From an uncultured Candidatus Saccharibacteria bacterium (GTDB lineage: Bacteria > Patescibacteriota > Minisyncoccia > Phycocordibacterales > Zambryskibacteraceae): a stretch of DNA of 46,414 nt. Below, piece after piece: positions 1,254 to 44,337 of the stretch. The translations under genes were made by a program, and so were the position numbers. Position 1 is the stretch's first letter, and every line of letters starts with the position of its first letter. The notes beneath the pieces are model-generated. The model was not told where the DNA came from. It searched no databases and worked only from the letters and a program-made list of their open reading frames with translations. The stretch is from assembly GCA_964450705.1 (NCBI GenBank), contig CAYVDB010000004.1, positions 1 through 46,414 of the forward strand. The letters run 5' to 3'.

Positions 1254-1829
1254 GTGGATCTGAATCCCCGAGAAGCCTCACTGAAAGCAGACTTCTCCGC
1301 AAAACTTGCACGCATACGAGAGGCTCGACCTGGCGGAAAAAGCCACCAGGACGACTTCCTGCTTGTGGCACGGGATCTTTTCCCTATCTACGGAGAGTCT
1401 GACGAAGAGCTCCGAGACTTCATGTCTCGAGCAGGACGTATCTTGTCAAAAGGGAAAAAGAGGAAGAAGACTCATTTCCCTAGCGACGAAGAGGTGGAGA
1501 CCATGGCGCAATACGCTTCAGGCCTATATCTCGATGGGGTAAGCTTTGATGATGCTCTCATCAGAGGACTCGAAGAGAGTGGCTTCCGATACGTAAAAGG
1601 AGCCATGGGCAGTGTGGCGCGAAAAATGCGCGCAATTCTTGGTCCATCAAGCAATAAGGCTTCATTGGACACAGGGCAACCGAAAGGTTGCCGCGTTTTT
1701 TTATTTATACAAATCCTTCTTTGCGAGTTTCGTACTTGCGAAGGATTTCCTGCTCAATATCAACTCGATCTCGGCCATAGGTATCGTATGAACGAAGTTT
1801 TATATCTTCGGCATGAATATCATTCTTAG
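1254..1829 (+). CDS. Hypothetical protein in a GC-rich cassette; the 3' end is uncertain because the ORF runs through a terminator hairpin
   Basis: There is a strong SD and a GTG start. The translation looks protein-like as far as ...ARKMRAILGPSSNKASLDTGQPKG. There is no in-frame stop before the hairpin at 1675-1702. The final ~125 nt overlap the convergent ATPase gene. Confidence 0.45.
   Translation: MDLNPREASLKADFSAKLARIREARPGGKSHQDDFLLVARDLFPIYGESDEELRDFMSRAGRILSKGKKRKKTHFPSDEEVETMAQYASGLYLDGVSFDDALIRGLEESGFRYVKGAMGSVARKMRAILGPSSNKASLDTGQPKGCRVFLFIQILLCEFRTCEGFPAQYQLDLGHRYRMNEVLYLRHEYHS
1675..1702 (+). terminator. Rho-independent terminator
   Basis: GGCAACC-GAAA-GGTTGCC (7 bp stem, GNRA loop), then GCG and a run of seven T. 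Confidence 0.7.
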
Positions 1830-4458
1830 CTCCTGGCGGAAGTGTTTCTATATCAAACGGCTTTACTGGTTTGCCATGAACAAGCATCTTTAAGTACGCA
1901 TGCCGGTTCGGAATATTTATTATTTCGCTTGCTGAAAATACTGGCTCAAACTGTTTCGCAAGATACTCCGCATCATCTGTCCCCACGCGAAAACATGCTA
2001 GTGTGCCCACGTTACCAAAGACAGCATTCTTTATATCTTCAGAAAGTTGCCCTATAAACTGATGCGCAATTGAAAGAGAAAGCTTATATTTTCTAGCTTC
2101 TGAAAGAATGGTTGCGATTGATGGAGTGGTAATATTCTGGAACTCATCAATATATAGATAAAACGGTGGGAGATCTTTGCCGAAAGAATCTACTCGAGAA
2201 AGCGCGGCCATAAGAATCTTACCCACAAGAATAAGTCCGATAAGGTTAGCATTTATATCCCCAAGACGGCCTTTAGCGAGATTCACTAAAAGTATCTTTC
2301 GGTTATCCATAATGTCCCGGAAGTTGAAGGAGGATTTTTCCTGAGCAATGATAGGTCGCATAATATCGTTTGCCAAAAATACATCAAACTTTGAAGTGAT
2401 GTACGGAACGATATTTGCTAAAGAAGCTTCTCCGCCGGCTTTCTCTGCAATTTCTCTCCAAAATTGGCTCACAATAGGATTCTTGCATCGAGATAATTTC
2501 ATTAAACGAAATTCTTTATTAGAAAGCACTCGAGAGACGTCAAGAAGCGTCGAGCCAGTATCTGGGTCTTCTATCACAAGCATGGTTGCATTTCGGAAAT
2601 ATTGTTCAAACATTGGCCCCATAGATTCTGGCACAGCACCATAAAGTTTCTGGAAGATATTAAAAAGCTCATTGACCACAAATGTTTTCTGCTCAGGGAG
2701 ATTTTTATCATACTCGAGCATATTTAGCGCCATCGGGCGCTCTACATAGCTCGGGTCAAAATAGATAACATCCTTTACCCTGTCTTTCGGGACCCGAGAA
2801 AGCACATCCACAATATCTGAGCCATGCGGGTCAATCATACATACCCCATTTCCTCTTTCGATATCTTGAATGATCATATTCTTGAGAAGGGTTGATTTCC
2901 CAGTACCCGTTTGCCCGATAGTGTAGAAGTGCCTCAATCGATCTTCATCAGACATAAATACTTCGGTCTTAGCACCTCGATGAGAGTTAAGCCCGAGGAG
3001 TACGCCTTCTTTAGGTAAATCAATTGGAGCTGGGGCTCCGCCTGAAGCAAGAGTCTTTAACTGTGAGACACCTTTTAAAGCAAGAGTATGAAAGTGAATT
3101 AGAGAAGTAAGTTCTGAAAGGTTGAGGGGAATCAGTTCGCTTCTATCAAGAGCTCTAAAGGCAAAGTTTCTGAAGAGTTTTCGGAGCGCACCACCTTTCA
3201 ATCGCTCAAAGCGCAAAGAGTTCCCTTGCGGATTATCAAATTGATTAAATCCTGATTCAATTTCAGACAAAACACTTTCAGATCGATTTTTATCTGGAGT
3301 AGAAACAACAAGTCTTAGGGCTACAGATACAATAGGTTTCCCTATTTTCTGACGAATCTTTTCAATCGGTACCTGGTCGATCGGCTTTCGCTCCTCTTTC
3401 TCGTCTTTCTTTTTGGAAAAGAGTATCCCTCGTAAAGTCTTACTAATCTCTCCAGAAAAAGTAGTTGGGAGATCAATTGCCTCACGGAGAGGCACCCCTT
3501 TTTCTATCTGCGAAAGAGCATACTCAAACCGTTTTGAGTGAGAGTCTCCTGCGGGAGTCATGAGCACTTGAATACACGCCCCTTCTCCATCCTTAGCAAT
3601 CTTAGAAAAACTATTGAGAATCACATTGAGCGGATCGTGATCAAATGCTTCATATGTTTTTATAGGAAAAATGGAATTACCTCGTGAACGCACTACGCTT
3701 CCGAGAGAAACCCCGTGCTCATGAAAAATATTATGATCATCAGCGACCTCTCTGATTTCTGCATCGTGGAAAATCGATAGAATTTGTTTTTCAAAGAGAT
3801 CGCTTTTTGTATTTGGTACTGATACATAAAATACAAATTCTGCGCTTCCATTACTATTCGCAATTTCAAGTACAATATGATTCTCCATTGGGTCATTCTC
3901 TGAAGATACAGATAACATCCCAGAATAAAACTGCTCCATCCCAGAAACAATTTCCTTAAGTGGCCGTTCTGCTTCTCCTTTTTTCTCTGGAAGTACCACT
4001 TCGTAAAGTACCATATGAAGCGCCTTGGAAAGAGGAGCCTTTGGAGGAAGCCCCTTCACGCCAAGACCCTTCTTCACATACTGAACAAGAAAACGATGAA
4101 AATCATCCTCTACGTGCGTATCACCGAGATTTTCAATAACAGAAAGTGTATTTTTTATGCCTTTTGTATTTAAGAGAATAAGTAGCTCTTCTATTTTCTT
4201 ATCATGAGTTTCGGGAGAAAGATTCTCTACAAGAGAGTGTATTGTATCCGTTTTTAACGAAAGATTGCTGTCGAGCACATGTTCGGAAGGGAGTTCTCTG
4301 TATGTAGAGAGGCTCTCACGAATCAGATCATCGTGAGATATCTCCGCTCCACGCTCTTGAAGATTTGTTCCTTTTTCAGCAACTCGTTCCTGAAAAAATT
4401 TTTTCTCTTCTTCAGTGGTTTTAAATTTATTTTCGGGAATAAACGAACGTAGTTCCAT
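1705..4458 (-). CDS. TraD/VirD4/HerA-like P-loop ATPase (type IV secretion DNA-binding-domain family) with a large uncharacterised N-terminal half
   Basis: 917 aa. Walker A is GQTGTGKSTLLKNM and Walker B is FYLYIDEFQNI, followed by ARKYKLSLSIAHQFIGQL. The first ~480 aa have no motif I recognise, and there is no N-terminal TM segment. Confidence 0.7.
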   Translation of the reverse strand: MELRSFIPENKFKTTEEEKKFFQERVAEKGTNLQERGAEISHDDLIRESLSTYRELPSEHVLDSNLSLKTDTIHSLVENLSPETHDKKIEELLILLNTKGIKNTLSVIENLGDTHVEDDFHRFLVQYVKKGLGVKGLPPKAPLSKALHMVLYEVVLPEKKGEAERPLKEIVSGMEQFYSGMLSVSSENDPMENHIVLEIANSNGSAEFVFYVSVPNTKSDLFEKQILSIFHDAEIREVADDHNIFHEHGVSLGSVVRSRGNSIFPIKTYEAFDHDPLNVILNSFSKIAKDGEGACIQVLMTPAGDSHSKRFEYALSQIEKGVPLREAIDLPTTFSGEISKTLRGILFSKKKDEKEERKPIDQVPIEKIRQKIGKPIVSVALRLVVSTPDKNRSESVLSEIESGFNQFDNPQGNSLRFERLKGGALRKLFRNFAFRALDRSELIPLNLSELTSLIHFHTLALKGVSQLKTLASGGAPAPIDLPKEGVLLGLNSHRGAKTEVFMSDEDRLRHFYTIGQTGTGKSTLLKNMIIQDIERGNGVCMIDPHGSDIVDVLSRVPKDRVKDVIYFDPSYVERPMALNMLEYDKNLPEQKTFVVNELFNIFQKLYGAVPESMGPMFEQYFRNATMLVIEDPDTGSTLLDVSRVLSNKEFRLMKLSRCKNPIVSQFWREIAEKAGGEASLANIVPYITSKFDVFLANDIMRPIIAQEKSSFNFRDIMDNRKILLVNLAKGRLGDINANLIGLILVGKILMAALSRVDSFGKDLPPFYLYIDEFQNITTPSIATILSEARKYKLSLSIAHQFIGQLSEDIKNAVFGNVGTLACFRVGTDDAEYLAKQFEPVFSASEIINIPNRHAYLKMLVHGKPVKPFDIETLPPGAKNDIHAEDIKLRSYDTYGRDRVDIEQEILRKYETRKEGFV

Positions 4459-5091: not shown

Positions 5092-5353
5092 ATAAAGAAA
5101 CACCCTCTTTTATTAGTAACTCCCTTTTACTTGGCCCGTTTATTTGATTATATTCTCCAATCTTTCCATCTGAACGAATTACTCTGTGACACGGAACCCT
5201 AGGATCTGTATTTTTTGAAAGTGCGGTTCCGACTGCACGAAATGCACTCGGTTTCCCTATCGCCCAGGCAACTTCTTTGTAAGTGCGGGTCTCTCCTTTT
5301 GGTATCTTTTTAACTATCGAGTAGACTTTCTCAGCAAATGTTTCTTTTTTCAT
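5090..5353 (-). CDS. ogt: Methylated-DNA--protein-cysteine methyltransferase (MGMT/Ogt), DNA-binding/active-site domain only
   Basis: The sequence is ...TYKEVAWAIGKPSAFRAVGTALSKNTDPRVPCHRVIRSDGKIGEY, containing the PCHRV active-site motif. I chose the start at the internal MKKETF. Confidence 0.85.
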   Translation of the reverse strand: MKKETFAEKVYSIVKKIPKGETRTYKEVAWAIGKPSAFRAVGTALSKNTDPRVPCHRVIRSDGKIGEYNQINGPSKRELLIKEGVSL

Positions 5354-5428
5354 AATTAAATACAAGTATATCAAAACCCTCAAAGGACAAGCCTAAGAGG
5401 GTTTTGATATCTAATTACTATGAAGAGA

Positions 5429-6157
5429 TTACTTCACTCGAACTACTACGCCAGTTGTAGCGTCGATATCTACCCGTCGATCGCCGTCAAAGCGTACTGC
5501 CCACACAACTTTTCCTTCTTCCATATCAAGCTGTATCTTGATTACAACCTTTCCGGGAAGAGCAATGAGCGCAAGTTCTTTTGCCTTCTCTGCACTTATT
5601 GTAGGAACGAAAGTCGATGGCACATCACTATCTCTTTCAAGAACTTTCTCTATCTTCTTTTCAGTCTTATCTTCTATTTTTTGGATGCGAACCTCGCCGT
5701 TATTTGACCAGTTGCGAACAACGGTTGCATCCACTGTGAGAGTCTTGTCAGGATCAATTTGGCCTCGTGCGCCAACATAGTCTCCTACCTTCCATCCTGT
5801 AAGTGATCTGTTATTACCCGCAATTTCCGTATCTTGATAAATGTTTACTGTCCATGATCCGCCCCAGCTTTTTACCATGATCTTACCAGTAGTAGACCCG
5901 GTTGTGGTAGAGATTGATTCAATCTTTCCGCGAATCAAAGCCTTTCCTTTTGGCCCAACCTCAAGAATAATAGGCTGGTACTCTCCTCTACGAACCATTT
6001 CCCCTTCAATCTTTTCAATCCTTTTCTTTGCGGTCTCCTCTATCTTTTGAATAAAGTTCTTATTCTTGTTTTCACTTCCTGTTTCAGCAAATGCAGCAGT
6101 TGAAGTAAGTGCAAATGCCACAACAAGAAAGAAAGCACTAATCTTTTTCAAATTCAT
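5429..6157 (-). CDS. Secreted PepSY domain-containing protein
   Basis: Signal peptide MNLKKISAFFLVVAFALTSTAAFA. The C-terminal region ISAEKAKELALIALPGKVVIKIQLDMEEGKVVWAVRF...DATTG resembles a PepSY domain. Confidence 0.65.
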   Translation of the reverse strand: MNLKKISAFFLVVAFALTSTAAFAETGSENKNKNFIQKIEETAKKRIEKIEGEMVRRGEYQPIILEVGPKGKALIRGKIESISTTTGSTTGKIMVKSWGGSWTVNIYQDTEIAGNNRSLTGWKVGDYVGARGQIDPDKTLTVDATVVRNWSNNGEVRIQKIEDKTEKKIEKVLERDSDVPSTFVPTISAEKAKELALIALPGKVVIKIQLDMEEGKVVWAVRFDGDRRVDIDATTGVVVRVK

Positions 6158-6240
6158 ACGTTTTTATAAGTTAATAACCAGATCAATTATACACTGATCT
6201 GTCGCTTATTGGAGACGTACCATAAGAACTCTTCTTACAT

Positions 6241-6266
6241 AAAAAAAGACCCTCTCAAGGAGGGTC
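6241..6266 (-). terminator. Rho-independent terminator
   Basis: On the minus strand: GACCCTC-CTTGA-GAGGGTC followed by seven T, immediately after the stop at 6267. Confidence 0.75.
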
Positions 6267-6590
6267 CTAACGGCGGGCAAGAGATTTCTTGATCTTCTCC
6301 GCTTTCTTCCGAACACAATCAATCCTCTTACGCTTGTCCTCATCAAACGGAACGAGACGTGGAGGATTATCCCCCAAAGACGACCAGAGATTGAAGCTAA
6401 GCCCAGCCGTACGAGATTGAACAAAGAAGTCCTTCTCTCGTTCGGTACACTGCCACACAAAAAAGGGCTCCTTCCTTCTATATCCCCTGATTTCTCGGGG
6501 AGACTCCTCGGCATCAAGTTCGCGAGAAAACACCCCATTCGTGTGAGCATTGAGTGGCTCAAGAAACCACAGCCTTTTGCCATGTCCCAT
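6267..6590 (-). CDS. Hypothetical protein (GC-rich cassette)
   Basis: This 107-aa ORF ends exactly at a strong terminator. The competing 6206..6667 frame reads through that terminator. Confidence 0.5.
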   Translation of the reverse strand: MGHGKRLWFLEPLNAHTNGVFSRELDAEESPREIRGYRRKEPFFVWQCTEREKDFFVQSRTAGLSFNLWSSLGDNPPRLVPFDEDKRKRIDCVRKKAEKIKKSLARR

Positions 6591-6672
6591 GTGTTCCCCC
6601 TTGAAAATATGAACTCTCTTTGTTTTTTATAATACAAAGAAGTATTGTTGTCAAAAACAAAAACCAAGCCCC

Positions 6673-7134
6673 CTAAAATTGAGCGATTACTAACTTTCTC
6701 ATACCCATCATCTTCTTAAATGCGCCAGGCTTTTTGATAAGCCCTTCCCAGTCTTCTGGCACAACCTGCCAACTCAAACCGTATTTATCTTTCAGCCACC
6801 CACATACGCTTTCTTGTCCGCCATTTGTGGTTAAAGCATTCCAATAGTAATCAATCTCTTCTTGATCTTTACAGCTAATCGAAAATGAAACAGCTTCATT
6901 AAACTTAAATTCTGGCCCCGCATTAATAGCAATAAAGTGCATTCCGAGTATTTCAAACTCGATCGTCAAAACTTCTCCCGCCAAGTGCTTCTGAAAATCC
7001 GCAAGTCCCTCAGCCTCACTTTTTGGGTAATACATCGTTGAAATAATCTTTCCATCTGGAAAAACACTCAGATAAAAATCTACTGCCTCTTTTGCATTAC
7101 GATCAAACCACAAATTGGGAATTACTTTTTGCAT
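6673..7134 (-). CDS. VOC (glyoxalase/bleomycin-resistance fold) family protein, PhnB / 3-demethylubiquinone-9 3-methyltransferase-domain type
   Basis: MQKVIPNLWFDRNAKEAVDFYLSVFPDGKI...LTIEFEILGMHFIAINAGPEFKFNEAVSFSI.C.DQEEIDYYW..L...GGQESVCGWLKDKYGLSWQVVP is the characteristic pattern of this family. Confidence 0.75.
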   Translation of the reverse strand: MQKVIPNLWFDRNAKEAVDFYLSVFPDGKIISTMYYPKSEAEGLADFQKHLAGEVLTIEFEILGMHFIAINAGPEFKFNEAVSFSISCKDQEEIDYYWNALTTNGGQESVCGWLKDKYGLSWQVVPEDWEGLIKKPGAFKKMMGMRKLVIAQF

Positions 7135-7166
7135 ATTATCTATTCTATTATAGATAAATCAGGCCA

Positions 7167-7195
7167 TTGACAACAATCTATATAAAACTTACATT
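7167..7195 (+). promoter_or_regulatory. sigma70-like promoter: TTGACA, 17 nt spacer, TACATT
   Basis: TTGACA at 7167-7172 and TACATT at 7190-7195, about 60 nt upstream of the small peptide gene. Confidence 0.5.
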
Positions 7196-7258
7196 TTAAA
7201 TGGTTGCAAAGATGTTCTTTGCTAAACCAAACACAATCCTCAAAACAGGAGGCTCGCC

Positions 7259-7387
7259 ATGAAGAACCCGAAAAAGTTCTCTTGGAAAGCCACCTCAAAG
7301 GAAAAGCCTATTTCTGGCACGATCGTGTGTCAGGAACAGTGCAGCTCCGGCGGTGGTGGCAACGGCAAGTGCGGCACCGGTAAGTAA
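7259..7387 (+). CDS. Candidate RiPP (TOMM / linear azole-containing peptide) precursor, 42 aa: MKNPKKFSWKATSKEKPISGTIVCQEQCSSGGGGNGKCGTGK
   Basis: Too short for the ORF track; I translated it by hand. SD AGGAGG lies at 7247-7252, 6 nt before the ATG. The gene has its own promoter and a 12-bp-stem terminator. The leader is Lys-rich and the C-terminal core is rich in Cys, Ser, Thr and Gly. It lies next to a YcaO/SagB enzyme gene. Confidence 0.65.
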   Translation: MKNPKKFSWKATSKEKPISGTIVCQEQCSSGGGGNGKCGTGK

Positions 7388-7406
7388 CCGAGATCGCCTA
7401 GCCCTC

Positions 7407-7440
7407 ATGAGTACAACACTTCCAAAGTTGTTGTACTCAT
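7407..7440. terminator. Bidirectional hairpin terminator between convergent genes
   Basis: Perfect 12-bp stem: ATGAGTACAACA (7407-7418) pairs with TGTTGTACTCAT (7429-7440), with a 10-nt loop and T-rich sequence downstream. Confidence 0.75.
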
Positions 7441-7442
7441 TT

Positions 7443-8252
7443 CTATTTTAATGCCTCCGTGAACCTATTAGATCCAATCTTCATCAACTCATCCCAGGAT
7501 AAATTCTTATTGTTATCCCTAAACTCTTTCACCAGCCAGTATCCAGCGGAATATCCTGTCCACTTTTGATACATTTCATTACCGAATAGAAATTCTTTTA
7601 TAAGATTCCTATCTTTAGATTGCAAAATATCTTTTGACTCCTTTAGGAGCTTAAGTGCTTCAGTTTTAGTGAGGGATCCAGCCCACTTACTTACTTTAGT
7701 ATCAAAATACTGTTCCCTGAAATTCTCTGCGAGGCCCTCCAATAATATCTCATCCAGGAGCGTATAATTATTGAAATTATCGTAGTGATGATAATAGAAG
7801 ATAGTGTGATTTAATTCATGGGCCACAGTATTTTCAATAGATTTATTTGAATATTCATCTAGGTTTATAAATAAATGGAAAACACAGCTGTAAACCGCCA
7901 CAGCCATTACCCCTTCAAAAACTTTATCTTCTTCAGTGGTGAGATATGGATGAACAAAAATAAAATTCTTTGTAGGAACAGTTAATTTTTCATTACACTT
8001 CCGAATAGTCTCCAATATAATCTCCCCAATCTCTAATTTTTGACCTTCAGATATTTCTTTATATTTACCAGGGTCACCTTCTCCAATATGATCCAATAGA
8101 CCTTGTTTTAATAAATTAATATCAGCATAGCCAGAATAATCGACACTTCCTTTCTCTTTCATTAGAGAAATAATAGCGTCAACCATATCACTCCTATCTT
8201 TGAATTCCTCGCTTGGAAAATAAAATTCAATCTGCGATAAATCCTTATTCAT
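7443..8252 (-). CDS. Putative Zn-dependent peptidase (HExxH; DUF2268-like)
   Basis: 269 aa. It contains ...ENTVAHELNHTIFYYHHY... (HELNH) and has DUF2268-like length and layout. No signal peptide is present. Confidence 0.5.
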   Translation of the reverse strand: MNKDLSQIEFYFPSEEFKDRSDMVDAIISLMKEKGSVDYSGYADINLLKQGLLDHIGEGDPGKYKEISEGQKLEIGEIILETIRKCNEKLTVPTKNFIFVHPYLTTEEDKVFEGVMAVAVYSCVFHLFINLDEYSNKSIENTVAHELNHTIFYYHHYDNFNNYTLLDEILLEGLAENFREQYFDTKVSKWAGSLTKTEALKLLKESKDILQSKDRNLIKEFLFGNEMYQKWTGYSAGYWLVKEFRDNNKNLSWDELMKIGSNRFTEALK

Positions 8253-8265
8253 CAGATCATACTAG

Positions 8266-8307
8266 CAAAATAAAAAAGAGGCAGAAAGCTAAAAGCCTTC
8301 TGCCTCT
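8266..8307 (-). terminator. Rho-independent terminator between the YcaO fusion gene and the peptidase gene
   Basis: On the minus strand: AGAGGCAGAA, an 11-nt loop, TTCTGCCTCT, then TTTTTTATTTT. Confidence 0.7.
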
Positions 8308-8311
8308 CGAG

Positions 8312-10492
8312 CTACTCAAAAGGATGAGGAAACCTAGTTAACTGCCCATACATCAGTCTGCCTCGCCCAAACCTCTCAGCAACCTCATAGAGGCGACTCA
8401 TTCCAGCTGGTTCTTGCCGATAACCAAACGTCATCTGAGCAGTTCCCGGCACGATCGCCCTAATGATACTCAGCCCGCGATTTCCTCCATACTCATCCGA
8501 GAGTTCGAGTGGAACAACTAAATGTTTCCAGTTCTTACTCTCGAAACAAGCCAGAAGATCATCCCAAGTCCGAGAGGTTTCAGATCCGACTTTTTGGAAC
8601 GGGACAACCCTCCGACTTGCAACCAGGAAATCTGCACGACGGAAGTACCGTTCTTGACCATAGAGACGACCGTGATCATTCGGCCAAACAACATCCTCAG
8701 GCAGAATCTTCCTCGGCACACCATTCTGCAAGCGATGGAGAATCGAAGCCTCCACCTCTGTGAGTGCATGACTAACAGCGTACTCGATGTTAAAGCTAGA
8801 ACAAGATGCGCAAGTGGTAAAGGTGTGCTCTGTGCTTTGAGCCATCACAAATACCACGGGCGCGAGATCGAGTGAATGGTCAACGATCCACACCTTAAAC
8901 CCAATATTCTGTAGCTTGCGAATCCTCTTTTGAATGATCTCTGGCAGAGACCTTTCAGACACCGTAGGCATATCGAGTTTACAGAAATACGAGTTGATAA
9001 ATGCATCTCGCTCAACCAACTCAAGGGTTCCAGTCTCAATTGACACTTGCTTATCAGGATGAGCCGCGCATCCAGACGAGTTTGAAAAACAGTAGTAAGG
9101 TGTTTCTGGGAAGTATGGAAAATAGACATGATCAGCGAGAACATAAGATTCATTGCCTCTCAAGTCATAACCCCTTGCCCAGGCATACCTCATCTGCTCA
9201 TCAAACGGCGCGAATGGAAAATCCTTTACCCTATACTGATCCTTATGGAATTGGACGACCTTTCGGGGGTCTACAACATTATCCAATTCACGATAGGCAG
9301 CATAGGTCAGTTTGGGTATACACCCACAAGACGCCCACTCTCTAGCTTCTGAGATAGCTTTTTTCATAGCCATCTCAGGAGAAGGATCTCTGCCGTGCGA
9401 CCAGCTTCGTTTATCTGACAAGCGAGCTGATGCAATAGCGAAATCAGGCACATAACCTTTTGCCATTGGGATTGCCCAATCCACTTGTATACGTGAGGAT
9501 TCTTGTGGATTTACTTGCTGGCCCTCTTTACCAAAGACAATGAGAGTGAGTGGGCGATACTCATCCGGAAGCTCTATGGCGTTAGCCACGAGCTCATCCA
9601 CAAATCCTCCAATTTCTAGAGTAGCAATCCCTTGTCGAGTCGCTTCCAAAAGAATGTTTTGAGCAGAGTGCCCAGCTTCTAATGGAACATAGAGCATGCT
9701 TCGATTACCGTATTTCTGATTCGCGAGAGAAAATGAACCACTAATGACGATTGCGCCATGTGCCCCTTTCTCGATGCCTGCAGGATTCAAGAAAGCTCTC
9801 GCAAATCTCAAGACATCTGCCGAGATCAAGCTAAAGCCTACGGAACCTGCTTGACTGTAAATTGCTTGGTATATCCCAGGATTCAAGTCGCCCGTCTTTG
9901 CAAACAGGACGATGTGAATTTTGAGAGGATACAACGCACCGGCGGATGGTACAGACCGATGTAGTCGCCCATCAGTGGTCTGATATTCTCCATACGCACT
10001 CCAAAGCAAATCAACAACAGCTTGAAAATCCACAGTCTCTCCAGAGAAAACGCGAACAGACTTACGTCGACTTATAATTTCAGAAAGACTATTTCCTGAA
10101 GGTTTATAAGCCCGTTCTAAGACATCTTGATGGTGTCTTTCGAACGACTGAGAGACCATTAATGCCACCTCACTGTCGCTGACAATTCTTGGGAAACGCA
10201 TTGGATTCGTGACAGTTTCCCAAAATCTACCCTCGAGAGTTTTTCCATCAACAATTACTTGTTTTTGAAATAACTCTTCGATAAGACCCTCGATTGAAGT
10301 TCGTTCCCAGTCTTGAGAAAGAACATCGATCACCTCACCCAACTTCCTGCTTCCATTACAGAGATCAAGAAGCTGAGCAATAACGGCTCGGGGGACTTCA
10401 ACAACCACTTCCTTGTCGAGAGTGTTAAAGACTGTCCTATTGCCTGTAGTAAAGGCCGAAGCCCACACAATAGGAATGCTCGTAAGGTCCAT
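8312..10492 (-). CDS. Three-domain fusion: RRE-like (PqqD-type) domain, SagB-type FMN dehydrogenase and YcaO cyclodehydratase
   Basis: aa ~17-83 read AVIAQLLDLCNGSRKLGEVIDVLSQDW...IEELFQKQVIVDG, a PqqD/RRE-like pattern. aa ~135-322 contain ISRRKSVRVF, PSAGALYP, QKYGNRSMLYVPLEAGH (the Lys-Tyr motif) and LTLIVFG. aa ~345-726 contain KKAISEAREW, FSNSSGCAAH and LELVERDAF, and the protein ends in FPHPFE. Confidence 0.85.
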   Translation of the reverse strand: MDLTSIPIVWASAFTTGNRTVFNTLDKEVVVEVPRAVIAQLLDLCNGSRKLGEVIDVLSQDWERTSIEGLIEELFQKQVIVDGKTLEGRFWETVTNPMRFPRIVSDSEVALMVSQSFERHHQDVLERAYKPSGNSLSEIISRRKSVRVFSGETVDFQAVVDLLWSAYGEYQTTDGRLHRSVPSAGALYPLKIHIVLFAKTGDLNPGIYQAIYSQAGSVGFSLISADVLRFARAFLNPAGIEKGAHGAIVISGSFSLANQKYGNRSMLYVPLEAGHSAQNILLEATRQGIATLEIGGFVDELVANAIELPDEYRPLTLIVFGKEGQQVNPQESSRIQVDWAIPMAKGYVPDFAIASARLSDKRSWSHGRDPSPEMAMKKAISEAREWASCGCIPKLTYAAYRELDNVVDPRKVVQFHKDQYRVKDFPFAPFDEQMRYAWARGYDLRGNESYVLADHVYFPYFPETPYYCFSNSSGCAAHPDKQVSIETGTLELVERDAFINSYFCKLDMPTVSERSLPEIIQKRIRKLQNIGFKVWIVDHSLDLAPVVFVMAQSTEHTFTTCASCSSFNIEYAVSHALTEVEASILHRLQNGVPRKILPEDVVWPNDHGRLYGQERYFRRADFLVASRRVVPFQKVGSETSRTWDDLLACFESKNWKHLVVPLELSDEYGGNRGLSIIRAIVPGTAQMTFGYRQEPAGMSRLYEVAERFGRGRLMYGQLTRFPHPFE

Positions 10493-10730
10493 GATTTATC
10501 CTTTTGTTTGTGTTGTCTAAGGACTGGCTATCTGACTTGACACTATATAGCATATATTACTTTGTCAATTAATTTGTATCTCTATAAATACAAGACCAGG
10601 AGCGCTGTTACGCACAGTTTTTATGTGGTCACAAGTTACTAAGTATTTTGAAGCTAATCGCACAAAATACGTAAGTACTTGCCGACCCCGTCTCGACCGT
10701 TTCTTTACTAAGAAACATATCTACGACTTC

Positions 10731-10763: not shown

Positions 10764-10777
10764 GTTGTGTCTTTTTG

Positions 10778-10849
10778 TGACCCTACGGGGAATCGAACCC
10801 CGATTTAAGCCTTGAGAAGGCTTCGTCCTAACCGTTAGACGATAGGGCC
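10778..10849 (-). tRNA. tRNA-Glu (anticodon CUC)
   Basis: 72 nt, hand-folded. The acceptor stem is GGCCCTA/TAGGGTC (one G-U pair). The D arm is GTCT...AGGAC, the anticodon arm is AAGCC-TTCTCAA-GGCTT and the T arm is CGGGG-TTCGATT-CCCCG. CCA is not encoded. Confidence 0.9.
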
Positions 10850-11003: not shown

Positions 11004-11297
11004 CTAAATCTTTATCTTGAGTACTTTGTATATTGTAATCACTGCGTAAGGGACTATTACAAAAAATAGATATTCCTCTAGAGGCAAAATGCCTATGTAT
11101 ATCCCCAAGAGTTTCTCTCGGCTAAAAAACCAATGCCCAGACCATACCGCATAGGTATCCCACACAACTCCGATAACAAAGAAAATCAGCGGGATAATAA
11201 TTCTCTCTTTTCTTGAAGAAAAAAGATGAATACGAAACTTCGTCTCGAGAAAGAATGTGACAAGAAGAAGAGCGAGAAGAATAGAAAGGTACGACAT
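11004..11297 (-). CDS. Lycopene cyclase domain-containing small membrane protein
   Basis: 97 aa with 3 TM helices. The motif W..F......LG..IG.LPLEEYLFFVIVP resembles the CrtYc/Yd-type lycopene cyclase domain. Confidence 0.45.
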   Translation of the reverse strand: MSYLSILLALLLVTFFLETKFRIHLFSSRKERIIIPLIFFVIGVVWDTYAVWSGHWFFSREKLLGIYIGILPLEEYLFFVIVPYAVITIYKVLKIKI

Positions 11298-22541: not shown

Positions 22542-23323
22542 TTTATATTTAGGATTTCAACCCATCGAAGAGTAAAAATATTTAGAGGAGTGATAAGCCG
22601 AATGTGTTTAAAAGAATCTTTTTCAGATTCTTCAACAGAACCGACTCTTGCAAGAGCAAATGCCGGGTCTCCAGGGAGAACAACTAAAGCGCCAGGAGCA
22701 ATAGGAAAATCTCTTGGAACACGAACAGAAAAATTCCCTGCCCCGTGTCCACGCAGTATAAGCGGTTCACCTCCTGGAAGTAATCGTCCTTCAGTTTCTT
22801 TATTAGAACTAGAATATAAATCAACCTTCATAAAACCTTCCCCCGCTTCAGAAACTATTCCAAGTGCAGTTGTTCCTGAAACAACTTTTGAACCCACTTC
22901 TCTTGGGGCGCCGTCAATAACAAAAGTATCGTAAGGAGTCTGAGATGGATGGACCAAAACTGCGTGCGTAGAAAAAACAAATTGAGAAGACAGCGCTAGT
23001 GCTTCCCTAAAAGATGCGTTATCAGCCCGAAGAATTTCTAATTCATTCATTCGGTTACGTAAGTCATTATTTTCTTCGGTAAGTTTATTATTTTCTTCCA
23101 CAATAGAAGCTTTTGTTGAAAATAGGTTTTTATTAAACACAGCCTGAGCAACAAATTCACGTGTTTTCCAAAATGGTTTTGCAATAGAAATAGTTGTACT
23201 TCCAAATACGCTAGGAAACAGAGCTTCTACTGAAGCAACAAGAACAACCATAAATAGCAGGCCCCAAAAAACCTTTCCTAAAATGTTCTTACGTTTTGGT
23301 TTAGTTTGTAGATAAAAGTTCAT
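22538..23323 (-). CDS. mreC: Rod shape-determining protein MreC
   Basis: TM helix, a coiled coil (NKLTEENNDLRNRMNELEILRADN) and a beta-rich C-terminal region. I chose the start at MNFYLQ (23323), which overlaps the mreB end by 23 nt. Confidence 0.75.
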   Translation of the reverse strand: MNFYLQTKPKRKNILGKVFWGLLFMVVLVASVEALFPSVFGSTTISIAKPFWKTREFVAQAVFNKNLFSTKASIVEENNKLTEENNDLRNRMNELEILRADNASFREALALSSQFVFSTHAVLVHPSQTPYDTFVIDGAPREVGSKVVSGTTALGIVSEAGEGFMKVDLYSSSNKETEGRLLPGGEPLILRGHGAGNFSVRVPRDFPIAPGALVVLPGDPAFALARVGSVEESEKDSFKHIRLITPLNIFTLRWVEILNIK

Positions 23324-24368
23324 CTTCGCTTTGAATGAGCACATCCTTAAAGCGAGGTATGTCTTCGAGAATAATTCCCGTACCTCGCGCAACAGCAGTA
23401 AGCGGATCAGTTGCAACGTGAACTGGAATCTTGAGTTCTAGAGCAATTAGATCCGGAAGACCTTTAATCAAAGCCCCACCGCCGGCGAGAAATATGCCTC
23501 GGTGCATAATATCCCCCAAAACCTCTGGCGGCGTAGTTTCAAGAACTTCTCTAGAAGATTCAATGAGGCTTGCAATAGATTGGGCAATAGCCTCTCGAAT
23601 ATCAGAATCAGTAATAACAACTTCTCTAGGAAGCCCAGTTACTAGATCTCTTCCTTTTATTGAAGATTCAAGAGACCCCTCCGGAGATATTACAGCTCCA
23701 ATTGCAATCTTCACATTTTCTGCAGTCTTTTCTCCGATTAGTATTTTAAATTCACTACGGATATAAGAAATAATATCTTGATTTAGTTTATCTCCAGCAA
23801 TTCGAAGATTTTTCGCTCGTACTACCCCGCCAAGAGAAATTACGGCGATGTCCGAGGTTCCTCCTCCAATATCAATAACCATACTTCCCACAGGGTCATT
23901 GACCGGAAGACGCATTCCAATAGCGGCGGCCATTGGCTCTTCTACAATGTGCACTTCAGAAGCTCCGGCATTTCTTGTTGCGTCTCGCACCGCTCGTATT
24001 TCTACATTTGTAATTCCAGAGGGCACCCCAACTACAACTCGAGGGCCGAGAATCTTTCGACTATCTTTCTGGGCCTTATTTAAAAGATAGGTAATCATTT
24101 CTTCGGTAACTTCAAAATCAGAAATAACACCATCTGTAAGAGGTTTTACAGCCACGATGTGTGCAGGGGTACGCCCAAGCATTTGTTTTGCTTCACTGCC
24201 CACTGCAACCACTCGTCCTGTTTTCTGATTTACCGCAACAACTGAAGGTTCATTTATTACAATTCCCTGGCCACGCATATACACCAAGGTATTTGCGGTA
24301 CCAAGATCGATGCCGATATCATTCATTAAGAATCGGCGAACATTTTCAAATCGATTAAGTAAAAGCAT
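23301..24368 (-). CDS. mreB: Rod shape-determining protein MreB
   Basis: DIGIDLGTANTLVY and DIGGGTSD are actin-fold motifs. The start overlaps the proS stop (TAATG). An alternative start is at 24326. Confidence 0.9.
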   Translation of the reverse strand: MLLLNRFENVRRFLMNDIGIDLGTANTLVYMRGQGIVINEPSVVAVNQKTGRVVAVGSEAKQMLGRTPAHIVAVKPLTDGVISDFEVTEEMITYLLNKAQKDSRKILGPRVVVGVPSGITNVEIRAVRDATRNAGASEVHIVEEPMAAAIGMRLPVNDPVGSMVIDIGGGTSDIAVISLGGVVRAKNLRIAGDKLNQDIISYIRSEFKILIGEKTAENVKIAIGAVISPEGSLESSIKGRDLVTGLPREVVITDSDIREAIAQSIASLIESSREVLETTPPEVLGDIMHRGIFLAGGGALIKGLPDLIALELKIPVHVATDPLTAVARGTGIILEDIPRFKDVLIQSEDELLSTN

Positions 24369-28961: not shown

Positions 28962-29975
28962 TTACCGTTTAGAGATAATTGACTTCTTGTAGGTATCTAA
29001 ATGATCAAGAGCAATACCGGTGCCTCGGGCTACACAGTAAAGGGCATCTTTTGCGAGCACAGCCTTTACTCCTGTTCGTCTATATACTAATTCAGGAAAA
29101 TTTCTCAACTGCGAAGATCCCCCCGTCATAATAATGCCACGATCAATAATATCTGATGATAGCTCTGGAGGAGTCTCTTGGAGGACATCTTTAATTGCTT
29201 TAACCATCTCCCTTAACTCTTTACTAATCGCTTTAACAATCTCGTTAGTTTTTATTTCAACAGAACGAGGAAGCCCTAAAACATAATCTCTTCCTTTAAT
29301 TGTCATCACTAATTCTTCATCAAGAGGAATCGCAGAACCAATTTTAATCTTTATTTCTTCAGCAGTCTTATCTCCTACGGCAAGATTAAAAGTTTTCTTT
29401 ATATAGTCAGCAATCGCAGAATCGATACGATTTCCTGCGCATTTAACCGATGTTGAAGCAACAATTCCACCAAGAGAAATAACGGCAACATCAGTGGTAC
29501 CGCCCCCAATATCTACAATCATATGCCCAACCGGCTCGTGGATCGGAATTCCTGCTCCAATTGCCGCAAGAATAGGTTCTTTAATTACAAAAGCATTTTT
29601 TGCTCCAGCTTTCATTGCAGCTTCAACTACAGCTCGACGTTCAGTCGACGTAACCCCAGCAGGAACCGAAATTAAAACTTCCGGCTTTGCAATATTCCAT
29701 TTCCCAAGAGCTTTCCCAATATAATAACGAAGCATTGCTTCAGTCACTCGATAATCAGCAATGACACCATCCTTCATTGGCCTATAGGCAACAATTGAAC
29801 CAGGTGTTTTGCCAATCATCTTCTTCGCGTCATTCCCAATCGCAAGAATTTTTTTATCTTCTTCAGATATAGCAACAACTGAAGGCTCATTTAAAACAAT
29901 GCCCTTTCCAGGAACATAGACTAGTACGCTTGTAGTACCAAGATCAATTCCTAATTTTTTAGAGAAAATACCCAT
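28962..29975 (-). CDS. mreB: MreB-family actin homolog (second paralog)
   Basis: LGIDLGTTSVLVY and DIGGGTTDVAV. 337 aa. Confidence 0.85.
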   Translation of the reverse strand: MGIFSKKLGIDLGTTSVLVYVPGKGIVLNEPSVVAISEEDKKILAIGNDAKKMIGKTPGSIVAYRPMKDGVIADYRVTEAMLRYYIGKALGKWNIAKPEVLISVPAGVTSTERRAVVEAAMKAGAKNAFVIKEPILAAIGAGIPIHEPVGHMIVDIGGGTTDVAVISLGGIVASTSVKCAGNRIDSAIADYIKKTFNLAVGDKTAEEIKIKIGSAIPLDEELVMTIKGRDYVLGLPRSVEIKTNEIVKAISKELREMVKAIKDVLQETPPELSSDIIDRGIIMTGGSSQLRNFPELVYRRTGVKAVLAKDALYCVARGTGIALDHLDTYKKSIISKR

Positions 29976-35341: not shown

Positions 35342-35417
35342 TCCGCGATAGCTCAGTTGGTAGAGCGGCGAGCTGTTAACTCGTTGGTCGCAGGTTCGAA
35401 TCCTGCTCGCGGAGCCA
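35342..35417 (+). tRNA. tRNA-Asn (anticodon GUU), CCA encoded
   Basis: Hand-folded. The acceptor stem is TCCGCGA/TCGCGGA, the D arm is GCTC-AGTTGGTA-GAGC, the anticodon arm is GCGAG-CTGTTAA-CTCGT and the T arm is GCAGG-TTCGAAT-CCTGC. It ends in GCCA. Confidence 0.92.
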
Positions 35418-36900
35418 AACTGGACGATGATAGTTCTAATATGAGGTTAAAGGGAGAATGTAGACTAAACACAAGCTTTTTTTCTGATACGGTAGGGTTC
35501 TGAAGTAGATAATTCAAAAATGCTCGTTTCTCGGCAGGTTCAGAACAATTCTCAAAAATATTTTTTGCTCTGCGCGCCACAGAAAGCACTGTAGCTAACA
35601 CGGTTTGGTATTCATAGTCTGCATTAGTGTGTTCCGTCAATTCAATATTTAAGAGTTGAAACTTGTCTGCGTACTCTTGGTGTTTTGTGTCATAGGTATC
35701 CTTAGTAATACCCGCATCGGTATAAAGCTCCAAGAGTCTATTGTCTTTATCCTTCACTTTGTCATATTCGTTCCTTAGACGCGTTACTTGAGCTTTGTGA
35801 TAGCTAACCTCTGCTTCCGTGGTCCTTCTAAGCTCCTCTACAAGCTCATCACAGACTTCTTTAGGGATACTCTCAAATCGCTCTAGTAGCTCATATACGG
35901 GCTTCAGGAGGGTCTGTTCTGGCACATATTCTCGTTTACATACACCTTTAGCATTGGTGCAGGAGTAATAAACATAGCAACCCTTTTTAATCTCTGCACT
36001 CATAGAGCAACCGCACTTTTGGCAATGCAGGAGCCCTTTGAAAATGAAGTCTTTAGACAGGGCTTTGTAAGGAGTTTTCTTTCGCTCCTTTCTAATATCT
36101 TGGCATCTATCAAACAGCTCCTTTGAGATTAAATGTGGGTATTTGTGAGGAAAGCTTCCATACTTCCTAGAATCCGCTATGCCGTAATAAAAAGAGTCTT
36201 TAATTATGTTTTCGATATTGCTTTTTGAGAGCCTGTGCCCCTTCAAACTTAGCAAACCTTCCTCCGTAACTTTTATTCTTAAGCTTTCAAGAGAGTAGTT
36301 CTCTGTTGCATATAGCTCAAACAGTCTTTGGATTAGATGTCCTCTATCTGGGTCAACAATAATGTCCTTGCGCAACCTCTTACCTTCATCAACAGAAATA
36401 TTCTTATAACCTAGTCTAACTGGACCAGTCCATTCCCCATTTCTACGTTTCTGTTCAAAAGCTCTTTTTACATTATCGCTAATAGCATTTGAATAATAGC
36501 TTGCCATTATAAGATTCATTCCAAATCCGCTTTTCTCAACAGCTGACAGGTTTCCTCCTACTACTTGATGGTCGGAAATAAAGTGTAATTCTATTTCGTT
36601 TGCTAGAGCTTTTTCATACAGCCAAGCAACTCTTTTATCAAACATATTTCTAGACAGACGGTCTACCTTATCGAAGCAGATGGCAACCTTCTCTTTTTTA
36701 CTGGTGTAACCTTGAATGAACTCGATAATTACATCAAACTCATCCCGCTTACTTTTGTAAGCACTTTCAATAAAGCTAAACTCTTTAGTAATATCGAAGC
36801 CACAGCTCTTACAATAGCCCTGCATTCGGAAAAGTTGTGCGTCAGGTGAGTTTTCCTTCTGCTCATCTGTCGATACTCTGGCTATAATTATCGCTCTCAT
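35353..36900 (-). CDS. Large serine recombinase (integrase)
   Basis: Resolvase catalytic domain (AIIIARVSTDEQ...DKVDRLSRN), a recombinase domain and a Zn ribbon (CQKCGCSMS...YYSCTN...C), followed by a coiled coil. The last 65 nt of the ORF are antisense to tRNA-Asn. Confidence 0.85.
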   Translation of the reverse strand: MRAIIIARVSTDEQKENSPDAQLFRMQGYCKSCGFDITKEFSFIESAYKSKRDEFDVIIEFIQGYTSKKEKVAICFDKVDRLSRNMFDKRVAWLYEKALANEIELHFISDHQVVGGNLSAVEKSGFGMNLIMASYYSNAISDNVKRAFEQKRRNGEWTGPVRLGYKNISVDEGKRLRKDIIVDPDRGHLIQRLFELYATENYSLESLRIKVTEEGLLSLKGHRLSKSNIENIIKDSFYYGIADSRKYGSFPHKYPHLISKELFDRCQDIRKERKKTPYKALSKDFIFKGLLHCQKCGCSMSAEIKKGCYVYYSCTNAKGVCKREYVPEQTLLKPVYELLERFESIPKEVCDELVEELRRTTEAEVSYHKAQVTRLRNEYDKVKDKDNRLLELYTDAGITKDTYDTKHQEYADKFQLLNIELTEHTNADYEYQTVLATVLSVARRAKNIFENCSEPAEKRAFLNYLLQNPTVSEKKLVFSLHSPFNLILELSSSSLAPRAGFEPATNELTARRSTN

Positions 36901-36904
36901 TTAA

Positions 36905-39553: not shown

Positions 39554-39559
39554 AAGTCT

Positions 39560-41461: not shown

Positions 41462-41462
41462 A

Positions 41463-41636
41463 TTATCTTGTTTTCACCTTATTTAGGAACCTTCCAAATT
41501 CTTCCCTATCAATCCTAAACTCCTTCCCAATCTTATATGCCTTCAGTTTCTTGGCTTTGATATATCGGTAAACGGTCATGATGTTTACCTGTAGCTTGTC
41601 AGCCAACTCTCTAGCTGTATAGAAATCTTTGTTCAT
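41463..41636 (-). CDS. Excisionase-family helix-turn-helix DNA-binding protein (HTH_17-like)
   Basis: YTARELADKLQVNIMTVYRYIKAKKLKAYKIGKEFRIDREEFGRFL. The stop abuts the mod start. Confidence 0.7.
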   Translation of the reverse strand: MNKDFYTARELADKLQVNIMTVYRYIKAKKLKAYKIGKEFRIDREEFGRFLNKVKTR

Positions 41637-41858
41637 ATGCCTTTTTCTCTTAAACACTTGTTGTAAAGTTGCTCATATTCTTGTGGTTCTGACAGTATAC
41701 CTTCGTAAGCCTTCTCAAGAGCTTGATTTAGTTGAGCTGAGGCTTCTTTTGAGGCCCGCTCGTTACATTGTTTTTTATTTGCCCAGATCTAATTCCAAAC
41801 CAATAGAAAACCCCAACTCCCGCAATTAAGATTATTACTATCGGTATTCTCCTGCTAT

Positions 41859-43010: not shown

Positions 43011-43240
43011 TTTTTATTTTTTAATCTGATAAAGAGCAGGATTTTGCTTCTTGTCTTGAGCAATAAGCCAAGTGAAGAGACCAACTAGACGTGCCCTTTC
43101 CTCAAACGAAAGGTCTTTGACGACTACTGGTTTCTTTAGCTTTTCTTCCTGCATAAAAACAACCCATAGGTTGTGCCTACAGGTTACTTTCTTGGAAAGT
43201 CTCAGTATAAGTATTTTCTGAGTTACAGAACTTTTCTGTG

Positions 43241-44002: not shown

Positions 44003-44046
44003 TTTTATATTCTTTACTTTACTTCACAGAGGCTTACACTTCAATT

Positions 44047-44259: not shown

Positions 44260-44337
44260 TAGCCTACATAGAAGCGTAACCATTGAACTCTAATTCTTGT
44301 TTTATTTTTAACCAATTAAGAACCTTAAACTCCTCAA

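Follow-up and report, generated by a model that had tools for sequence, protein, structure and literature searches.

One of the questions raised by this locus is how little machinery is needed to install azoles in a ribosomal peptide, and what such machinery is doing in a reduced bacterial genome. The window, by which is meant the whole stretch of 46,414 nucleotides that was analysed (contig CAYVDB010000004.1 of an uncultured Candidatus Saccharibacteria bacterium), carries in a bacterium of the candidate phyla radiation (CPR) type a three-gene cassette of about 3.4 kb that encodes a Cys-rich peptide, a fused enzyme and a zinc-protease-like protein. An original prediction made from the sequence had read these genes as a compact thiazole/oxazole-modified microcin (TOMM) or linear azole-containing peptide (LAP) locus, a reading that is supported here with corrections that concern the size of the family, the lack of an E1-like partner, the identity of the protease-like protein as a member of DUF2268 and the basis on which transfer is argued. 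The region from about 7165 to 10590 is very probably a self-contained, horizontally mobile module for a ribosomally synthesised peptide that undergoes post-translational modification (RiPP), making a small linear thiazole/oxazole product. The evidence lies in the gene content, the domain identities, the conservation of catalytic motifs, the linkage of the genes, the purifying selection on the peptide and the association of a leader motif with one enzyme architecture. The chemistry is of a known kind, the azole installation of LAP/TOMM systems; new are the single polypeptide in which a RiPP recognition element (RRE), a SagB-type dehydrogenase and a YcaO domain are joined without an E1-like partner, the DUF2268 partner, and a pattern in which the core of the precursor is conserved while the leader is swapped.

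What, then, does the enzyme consist of? All three open reading frames (ORFs) lie where they had been placed, at 7259-7387 on the forward strand and at 7443-8252 and 8312-10492 on the reverse strand, and for the last of these, which encodes 726 residues, Pfam upholds the YcaO and SagB-type nitroreductase domains that had been proposed. YcaO (PF02624) scores 134.1 bits against a cut-off of 25.7 over residues 367-684 (profile positions 2-324 of 325), and Nitroreductase (PF00881) scores 57.7 bits over residues 140-322. The best NCBIfam matches are TOMM_cyclo_SagD (TIGR03604) at 138 bits, in an alignment that runs to residue 725 of 726 and model position 376 of 377, and antibiot_sagB (TIGR03605) at 64.8 bits; on these scores the fused enzyme is too divergent to be named by either model, although both are its best matches. 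A profile built from 22 diverse homologues, aligned with the window protein as the reference sequence, matches the solved structures of the azoline cyclodehydratases MusD, TruD and LynD, of archaeal YcaOs, and of the azoline oxidases McbC, BmdC and CyaGox/ThcOx, and a fold search with the AlphaFold model of the whole enzyme (predicted local distance difference test, pLDDT, 75) agrees with it. The model has four parts only, namely an N-terminal domain (aa 1-85) of four short strands followed by three helices, a linker that is disordered (aa 86-135, pLDDT 29-45), a nitroreductase fold and a YcaO fold.

Fundamental to the assignment is that the catalytic motifs are kept. The pair K260-Y261 is invariant in 22/22 homologues and is aligned with K201-Y202 of McbC and the KY pair of BmdC, and the Lys-Tyr pair of McbC supplies this azoline dehydrogenase with its catalytic base system (PMC6395948). 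At the other end of the protein a C-terminal FPHPF, also invariant in the 22 homologues (F721-P722-H723-P724, 2 residues from the end), resembles the proline tail of McbD, where the prolines sit in the active site of the cyclodehydratase and full processing depends on them (PMC6395948); the pLDDT of the tail is low in the model. Within the YcaO domain the alignment and the model together place invariant acidic pairs on helices, at E382/E385, E491/E494 and E579/E581.

The RRE-like region that had been proposed for the same ORF is borne out by fold and not by sequence. At the sequence level PqqD is matched in NCBIfam only at E = 0.05, and when the N-terminal alignment was used as a profile against the PDB, nothing meaningful came up. 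When aa 1-95 are modelled alone, AlphaFold2 (AF2) returns a pLDDT of 89.7, and the fold matches are almost all RREs, including those of ThcOx, LynD, TruD, PbtF, McbB, TbiB1, MadB and MccB, with template modelling (TM) scores of 0.5-0.7; the match to the PbtF RRE has a TM score of 0.71 on target length and a root-mean-square deviation of 2.5 A over 86 residues. The N-terminus of the enzyme (aa 1-85) is thereby confirmed by fold, at the level of the model, as an RRE. What the polypeptide lacks is an E1-like component: no ThiF, E1-like or Ocin-ThiF sequence was found in the enzyme (by Pfam, NCBIfam or the model), in the scanned window ORFs (those of at least 90 aa, searched with Pfam) or in the conserved neighbours, and a hidden E1-like domain in aa 86-135 was ruled out, as this stretch has 50 residues only and a pLDDT of 29-45. 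The claim that the locus supplies the minimum parts for an azole peptide consequently holds only in a new, more minimal sense, in which the E1-like C protein or F protein is absent.

The second component is the substrate. The product of 7259-7387 is MKNPKKFSWKATSKEKPISGTIVCQEQCSSGGGGNGKCGTGK, in which aa 1-20 or thereabouts are predicted to form a leader with the recognition motif PKKFSWK, and aa 21-42, TIVCQEQCSSGGGGNGKCGTGK, the core. That this Cys/Ser-rich peptide is a real gene, as had been claimed, follows from its retention in relatives, its own expression signals and a divergence dominated by synonymous change. In the loci compared, a Cys/Ser-rich small ORF always adjoins the homologous enzyme, and among 20 genome loci that carry the full-length fused enzyme, 10/10 CPR loci with DUF2268 next to it, the window counted, have the homologous small ORF in the same position and the same convergent orientation. 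Over the last 20 codons, the window and locus L011 differ by 11 synonymous changes and 1 non-synonymous change, and the 42-aa frame is shown by this to be under purifying selection. A chance ORF or alternative frames at 7204-7408 were ruled out by the conservation of the 42-aa frame across genomes together with the ratio of synonymous to non-synonymous differences. A profile search brought up 37 further database clusters of the peptide, all unnamed, and the window's own peptide is missing from the protein database, presumably because the 42-aa ORF was never called as a gene. Among curated precursor families, NCBIfam has no match at E <= 10 for the precursors of the fused-enzyme loci or for those of the split-enzyme loci described below, and Pfam has none for the window peptide.

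When 45 precursors are anchored on the invariant Cys (position 0, C in 100%), the columns around it are occupied by Q at -3 (96%), E at -2 (80%), Q at -1 (100%), S at +1 (93%), S or C at +2 (100%), G at +3 (87%), G at +5 (91%), G at +6 (82%) and C at +10 (82%). The core motif QxQCSSGGGGNGxC is 80-100% conserved, and the leader columns mostly reach 25-60%. That the core is at least as conserved as the leader is unusual, and so is the fact that it has been kept across two enzyme architectures; in cyanobactin, NHLP and Nif11 precursors the cores are hypervariable (PMC4603692).

The behaviour of leader and core can be followed separately in two groups of relatives. For instance, the fused enzymes of seven proteobacterial loci (L009, L012, L013, L015-L018) are 26-35% identical to the window enzyme, and the precursors directly downstream of them keep a leader motif of the form [KR]-[ST]-[FL]-[SK]-W-[STK]-[VI], seen as PKSFSWTVT, RSFSWSVV, RSFKWSIA, KSLSWKVS and KTFSWSVS, in front of cores that differ from that of the window (ECGACG, LGCCK, LGCGGCGCK, MGCSCCGGK). 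The leader motif tracks the RRE-bearing fused enzyme, and a working RRE that binds the leader would lead one to expect this. The partners in these loci are a YheC/D-type ATP-grasp protein, an ABC exporter and a ketosynthase, accompanied in some loci by giant RTX/cadherin proteins, and in L016 the ATP-grasp gene is flanked by two paralogues of the fused enzyme.

The converse is found in four database peptides, which carry the window-type core behind unrelated leaders with a P..WW motif, and in the split loci of such peptides (L081-L085), in which a precursor with nearly the same core, ATQxQC(S/K)S...G.G.C, is followed by separate genes for a SagD-type YcaO (436-470 aa) and a SagB dehydrogenase. 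These loci differ from the module in the separation of the genes, the unrelated P..WW leader, the lack of DUF2268 and the divergence of the enzymes, which are about 24-27% identical to the fused enzyme over partial alignments (24% over 74 aa; 27% over 207 aa). Their SagB proteins score 113-119 bits, over the curated NCBIfam cut-off of 78.4, so that the QxQCSS core, standing beside a bona fide SagB and a SagD-type YcaO, is independently tied to azole-forming enzymes. The hosts have GC contents of 0.37-0.63. As the similarity between the two types of precursor begins at Gly20/Thr21 (G-T-I-V-x-Q-E-Q-C in the fused type against G-A-V-A-T-Q-E-Q-C in the split type), often after GG or AG, the boundary between leader and core is placed near that point.

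Several further features of these loci were seen. In L082 a 2-oxoglutarate (2OG)-Fe(II) oxygenase adjoins the precursor. In L084, at 6327-9311, a QTQC-core split locus stands beside a weak Nif11-like small ORF and a LanM-type synthetase (DUF4135 + LANC_like), so that two RiPP systems are adjacent. A distant split YcaO/SagB locus in L086/L087, at 5308-7352 (34% YcaO identity), has a Cys/Pro-rich core, PCKPPPCRGCRPCTACSCGGG, with a major facilitator superfamily (MFS) transporter upstream and an M16 peptidase following, which shows that other types of protease serve related systems.

The third component had been described as an HExxH peptidase. An HExxH protein it certainly is, belonging to DUF2268 (PF10026 is matched over profile positions 5-193 of 195 at 97.7 bits, the cut-off being 23.6), with the motif at H145-E-L-N-H149 and an invariant E172 in EGLAE; the peptidase part of the description goes further, to what can be proposed from the Pfam label of predicted Zn-dependent protease. 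The gene adjoins that of the enzyme in 13 loci. No NCBIfam match is found at E <= 0.1, models of alpha-ketoglutarate (alpha-KG) HExxH proteins included, and there is no sequence relative in the PDB. The protein is best regarded as a candidate leader peptidase. Because the split-enzyme loci are without DUF2268, this protease would not be obligatory for the QxQCSS core. A second soluble HExxH protein of about 260 aa (HEIMH/HELMH/HEILH, then HALIEL), without a Pfam match, is encoded near the module in three CPR loci (L002 4861-5670, L004 7283-8050, L005 9567-10337) and is absent from the window.

How far does the module extend, and how is it expressed? Its limits, promoter to promoter, were drawn by alignment with the two closest relatives, L001 and L008, whose enzymes are 72-76% identical to that of the window. 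On the enzyme side the homology stops about 95 nt 5' of the start, just past a conserved TTGAC(A/T), and on the peptide side about 105 nt 5' of the start, just past a conserved TTGACA that is kept in both relatives as the -35 element; the conserved unit is accordingly taken to be about 7165-10590. No -10 element could be assigned with confidence in the promoter region of the enzyme gene. Each of the three units had been credited with a terminator of its own, which is true of the enzyme gene; the peptide and DUF2268 genes use one common hairpin, probably a bidirectional terminator, for which 0/200 shuffles fold equally well and which is followed on the forward strand by TTCTATTTT. In the spacer between the enzyme and DUF2268 genes (55-66 nt) a GC-rich hairpin with a U-tract is present in 8/8 loci with differing stem sequences, and 3' of it, in window 8253-8311 and the equivalent spacers of 7 loci, lies an A/T-rich, TAtaAT-like stretch; no Shine-Dalgarno sequence is visible ahead of the DUF2268 ATG in any of these spacers. 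The arrangement may allow attenuated read-through, or may give a leaderless or short-leader transcript. From the hairpin with its U-tract and the missing Shine-Dalgarno sequence it would follow that expression differs in level between the enzyme and the HExxH protein. The positions of the features are collected in Table 1.

Table 1. Positions in the window of the genes, enzyme domains and expression signals of the module, with the basis of each assignment.
Feature	Position	Strand	Basis
Promoter-like site of precursor gene, TTGACA-17-TACATT	7167..7195	+	10/12 match to consensus; putative function
Shine-Dalgarno AGGAGG, 6 nt 5' of ATG	7247..7252	+	Direct sequence reading
Precursor gene, 42 aa	7259..7387	+	ORF, homologues in place, column conservation, codon changes
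Hairpin between convergent precursor and DUF2268 genes	7407..7440	.	-18 kcal/mol, z = -4.36
DUF2268 HExxH metalloprotein, 269 aa	7443..8252	-	PF10026; 13 loci; motif conservation
Terminator-like hairpin, 15 bp + T-tract, in enzyme/DUF2268 spacer	8276..8308	-	Hairpin kept in 8/8 loci
YcaO cyclodehydratase domain, aa 336-726	8315..9487	-	PF02624; TIGR03604; fold of LynD, TruD, MusD, McbD
SagB-type flavin mononucleotide (FMN) dehydrogenase domain, aa 136-325	9518..10087	-	PF00881, TIGR03605, invariant K260-Y261
N-terminal RRE, aa 1-85, then disordered linker, aa 86-135	10238..10492 (aa 1-85)	-	AF2 and fold matches
Promoter region of enzyme gene, TTGAC(A/T) at 10563-10568	10540..10590	-	L001/L008 homology begins here, absent further upstream

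The module is not an odd one-off of a reduced genome; its fused enzyme has many relatives, which together make up a large family. Fused relatives with 47-76% identity to the window protein fill at least 120 clusters (built at 90% identity), and nearly all of those listed cover 94-100% of the query; an exhaustive search found 671 representatives at 50% identity with E <= 1e-30, of which the best 150 have E < 1e-85 and are mostly full-length, at about 720-750 aa. Many of the relatives are named as Paceibacterota and other Patescibacteria metagenome-assembled genomes, and the only labels that the homologues carry in the databases are 'YcaO-like family protein' and 'S12 methylthiotransferase accessory factor'. 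An all-against-all comparison of neighbouring ORFs identified enzyme, DUF2268 and peptide as the only conserved gene set in the CPR loci. There is no synteny of the flanks with the 20 related loci, no flanking gene mapping near the module in the window. In the three closest genomes the module lies 230-360 nt downstream of a same-strand tRNA gene that differs each time, being Glu-CTC in the window (10777-10849), Leu-CAA in L001 (113-197) and Ile-TAT in L008 (5567-5640), and the DNA between the tRNA and the enzyme promoter has no homology among the three. The tRNA-Glu(CTC) gene, on the reverse strand and 285 nt upstream of the enzyme start, is the neighbour that had been claimed. No att-like direct repeats of its 3' end were found around the module, nor any adjacent integrase or mobility genes, and the link with tRNAs is circumstantial.

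The GC content at third codon positions (GC3) is 0.425 in the enzyme gene, 0.674 in the peptide gene and 0.326 in the DUF2268 gene, against 0.319 +/- 0.029 in 14 housekeeping genes. The claim that compositionally atypical ORFans adjoin the module is not supported, the GC of its neighbours being ordinary; the atypical genes are those of the enzyme and the peptide themselves. The original prediction of horizontal acquisition is thus retained on other grounds, since the lack of flank synteny, the different upstream tRNAs and the atypical GC3 of the module point to horizontal spread of a compact cassette.

From homology and linkage a mechanism can be proposed. The 42-aa precursor would be transcribed from its own promoter, and its leader (PKKFSWKV/I-T) would be bound by the winged-helix RRE that forms aa 1-85 of the 726-aa enzyme, so that the C-terminal core, about TIVCQEQCSSGGGGNGKCGTGK, could be threaded into the YcaO domain. 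There, with ATP, azolines would be formed by cyclodehydration of Cys28 and Cys38, both invariant, with Cys24 as a probable and Ser29/Ser30 as possible further sites, and cyclisation of the serines, if it occurs, would give contiguous azoles from the C-S-S run, like the bis-heterocycle sites (C-S and S-C) of microcin B17. Oxidation of the azolines to azoles would then fall to the fused SagB-type FMN domain, through Lys260-Tyr261, after which the DUF2268 HExxH metalloprotein would remove the leader, probably around Gly20/Thr21.

A number of points weigh against this reading. The two NCBIfam scores fall under the curated cut-offs (138 against 219.25 for TIGR03604, 64.8 against 78.4 for TIGR03605), and the E-values of the RRE fold matches are modest, at 6e-3 to 1, although the list of matches is nonetheless coherent. 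For RREs that are joined to azoline dehydrogenases a vestigial nature has been suspected (PMC7470986), but here the association between leader motif and enzyme architecture argues otherwise. The E1-like or Ocin-ThiF partner that potentiates known azoline-forming YcaOs is absent, and a TOMM is defined as requiring an E1-like C protein, a CD fusion or an Ocin-ThiF-like F protein together with the YcaO (PMC4603692). Exporter and immunity genes are missing too; the prediction had recognised none, and none is found among the scanned window ORFs. Finally, DUF2268 is a family without a characterised member, some HExxH proteins of RiPP systems are alpha-KG hydroxylases and not proteases (PMC12636437), and the split-enzyme loci have no DUF2268 at all.

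The last of these points leads to the question of whether DUF2268 is a leader peptidase. It might instead be a tailoring enzyme, such as an Fe/alpha-KG hydroxylase acting on the Gln/Glu by Cys28, or a self-protection factor, in which case a housekeeping protease would take off the leader, or the leader would stay on. RiPP-cluster HExxH proteins include a hydroxylase of Gln runs (PMC12636437), and Gln is what surrounds the invariant Cys, at -3 and -1. The loci that share the core without DUF2268, including L082 with its oxygenase beside the precursor, fit this proposal too, as does the position of the DUF2268 gene behind a terminator and without a visible Shine-Dalgarno sequence. However, the protein has no match at E <= 0.1 to the alpha-KG-HExxH models, Pfam calls it a predicted Zn-dependent protease, and its H-E-x-x-H with the invariant E172 is the arrangement of gluzincin-type proteases; a dedicated protease beside the modifying enzyme is, moreover, the commonest arrangement in RiPP loci. 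Because sequence membership in the alpha-KG HExxH family (IPR026337-type) is missing, the non-peptidase role is judged unlikely, and the candidate peptidase is kept. It is improbable that the YcaO carries out some other amide activation (thioamide or amidine formation, or ATP-dependent cleavage) with the nitroreductase domain in a different role. YcaOs without an E1-like or F partner are indeed typical of non-azoline chemistry, for example in bottromycin biosynthesis and McrA thioamidation (PMC4603692), methan_mark_1 is a weak secondary NCBIfam match (46 bits), and MusD, one of the top structural matches, also has peptidase activity. Yet the best NCBIfam match is to the SagD family, end to end, and without azolines there would be no purpose in a fused dehydrogenase of the azoline type whose K-Y pair is intact. 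The cores are Cys-rich in every relative, and no TfuA or sulfur-donor gene is present among the scanned window ORFs, a search for TfuA (of YcaO-TfuA thioamidation) in the conserved neighbours being equally negative.

The small ORF might also not be the substrate, and the enzyme might modify another protein, as the label 'ribosomal protein S12 methylthiotransferase accessory factor' attached automatically to homologues and the high conservation of the family in length and sequence could be taken to imply. This is largely refuted by the peptide gene itself, which strictly co-occurs with the enzyme in a fixed orientation, is under purifying selection and has a leader motif that co-varies with the RRE-bearing architecture, while the S12 label has been carried over generically from E. 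coli YcaO, a protein without the C-terminal proline tail (PMC6395948). Very improbable, lastly, is that a past transfer left in this genome a module that is now silent or in decay. Its atypical composition and the lack of exporter, immunity and nearby mobility genes would suit a relic, but the three ORFs are intact and full-length, the window protein, as the alignment reference, retains all family-invariant residues, the promoters, ribosome-binding site and terminators are intact and conserved, and divergence from the relatives is dominated by synonymous changes.

The azole RiPP reading can be set beside the systems it most resembles. The mcb operon of E. coli provides McbEFG for export and immunity, and TldD/E removes the leader of microcin B17; counterparts of neither were found in the scanned window, DUF2268 being the partner here. 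The likeness to McbBCD and its substrate McbA lies in the YcaO and FMN dehydrogenase with an aligned catalytic Lys-Tyr, the winged-helix RRE that clamps the leader, the C-terminal proline tail of the YcaO and the Gly-rich core with Cys and Ser. McbC and McbD share 11-21% identity with the fused enzyme in structural alignments, and they work with an E1-like, Zn-binding McbB in a complex of three proteins, B4C2D2 (PMC6395948), in contrast to the single polypeptide with only an RRE seen here. The cyanobactin enzymes LynD/TruD/PatD and ThcOx give the best fold matches, LynD and TruD for the YcaO and ThcOx and LynD for the RRE, and ThcOx has RRE domains fused onto the dehydrogenase (PMC6395948) in the same RRE-oxidase order as the fused enzyme. 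In cyanobactin systems, however, the oxidase is a different protein from the cyclodehydratase (RRE-E1-YcaO) (PMC6395948), PatG homologues can be fused to the dehydrogenase (PMC4603692), and the products are macrocyclised by the PatA/PatG proteases (PMC4603692), whereas no PatA/PatG subtilisin-like protease or macrocyclase domain is found in the window or in related loci; the dehydrogenase RREs that may be vestigial there (PMC7470986) correspond here to the sole RRE of the system. The F-protein-dependent synthetases (HcaD/F of heterocycloanthracin, and TbtG/F and PbtF of thiopeptides) likewise have the RRE outside a full E1-like C protein, and the PbtF RRE is among the closest structural matches to the enzyme N-terminus. 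They differ in that a separate Ocin-ThiF-like protein carries the RRE, and a truncated E1-like domain remains attached to the YcaO (PMC4603692), whereas in the fused enzyme the RRE is joined to dehydrogenase and YcaO with no ThiF-like sequence.

The rest of the window had been described as housekeeping DNA, which is mostly so by Pfam scans, apart from an integrated element at 35.3-46 kb. Directly after a tRNA-Asn(GTT), the low-GC block (0.31-0.39) at 35342-46000 contains two large serine recombinases (35353-36900 and 44338-45987) and a type III restriction-modification pair, with res at 36905-39553 and mod at 39560-41461. It also has an ORFan and a weak Rep_trans protein (41859-43010), and its appearance is that of a mobile element integrated at a tRNA. 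About 470 nt at 6200-6670, between a PepSY gene (5429-6157) and a VOC/PhnB-like gene (6673-7134), hold only Arg-rich, TTG-started ORFs without a Pfam match and a terminator-like hairpin (6246-6268, reverse strand); Rfam gave no match on 6100-6750 even at E <= 1, and this stretch may be an undescribed noncoding RNA or a decayed gene. Other genes seen are those for a VirD4/TraG-like coupling ATPase of 917 aa (1705-4458), two MreB paralogues (23301-24368 and 28962-29975) and, between tRNA-Glu and murF, a 97-aa lycopene-cyclase-domain membrane protein (11004-11297).

In the literature searched, nothing was found that joins YcaO with DUF2268, or YcaO with Patescibacteria and azoles, and no description was found of the RRE-SagB-YcaO architecture, of the precursor family or of a role for DUF2268 in RiPP biosynthesis. 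The motifs QCSSGGGG and QEQCSS were not found there, and the shorter strings TQEQC/TQTQC only in seven unrelated papers. YcaO clusters of CPR bacteria appear only as antiSMASH counts, and a 2015 survey of TOMMs lists CD fusions and no dehydrogenase-YcaO fusion (PMC4603692).

What might the product be for? A core conserved across phyla and two architectures, behind leaders that are swapped, is the reverse of the usual RiPP pattern and points to a conserved molecular target or role. Because the module has no exporter or immunity gene and the core is more conserved than the leader, the product would act on such a target, or have such a role, instead of being an arms-race bacteriocin. It can tentatively be taken a step further, to a small molecule of conserved function whose azole-bearing core is the selected entity, as opposed to a diversifying bacteriocin, and which is made by two non-orthologous systems, the fused RRE-SagB-YcaO with its FSW leader and the split SagD and SagB with their WW leader having come to share one core by convergence or by recruitment. 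Such a molecule might serve as a metallophore, a signal or something like a cofactor, or be an effector whose target is universally conserved, and in CPR bacteria it may mediate the relationship between symbiont and host.

If the azole RiPP reading is true, the 726-aa protein would be the most compact azole synthetase known, and as such attractive for peptide engineering, and the first shown to work as one polypeptide without an E1-like scaffold. It would also follow that a dehydrogenase-fused RRE can be a functional leader-binding element and not a vestige, and DUF2268 would gain its first functional context. CPR bacteria have few natural-product genes, and a widespread mobile cassette of this kind may matter for the interactions of these episymbionts with their hosts or competitors.

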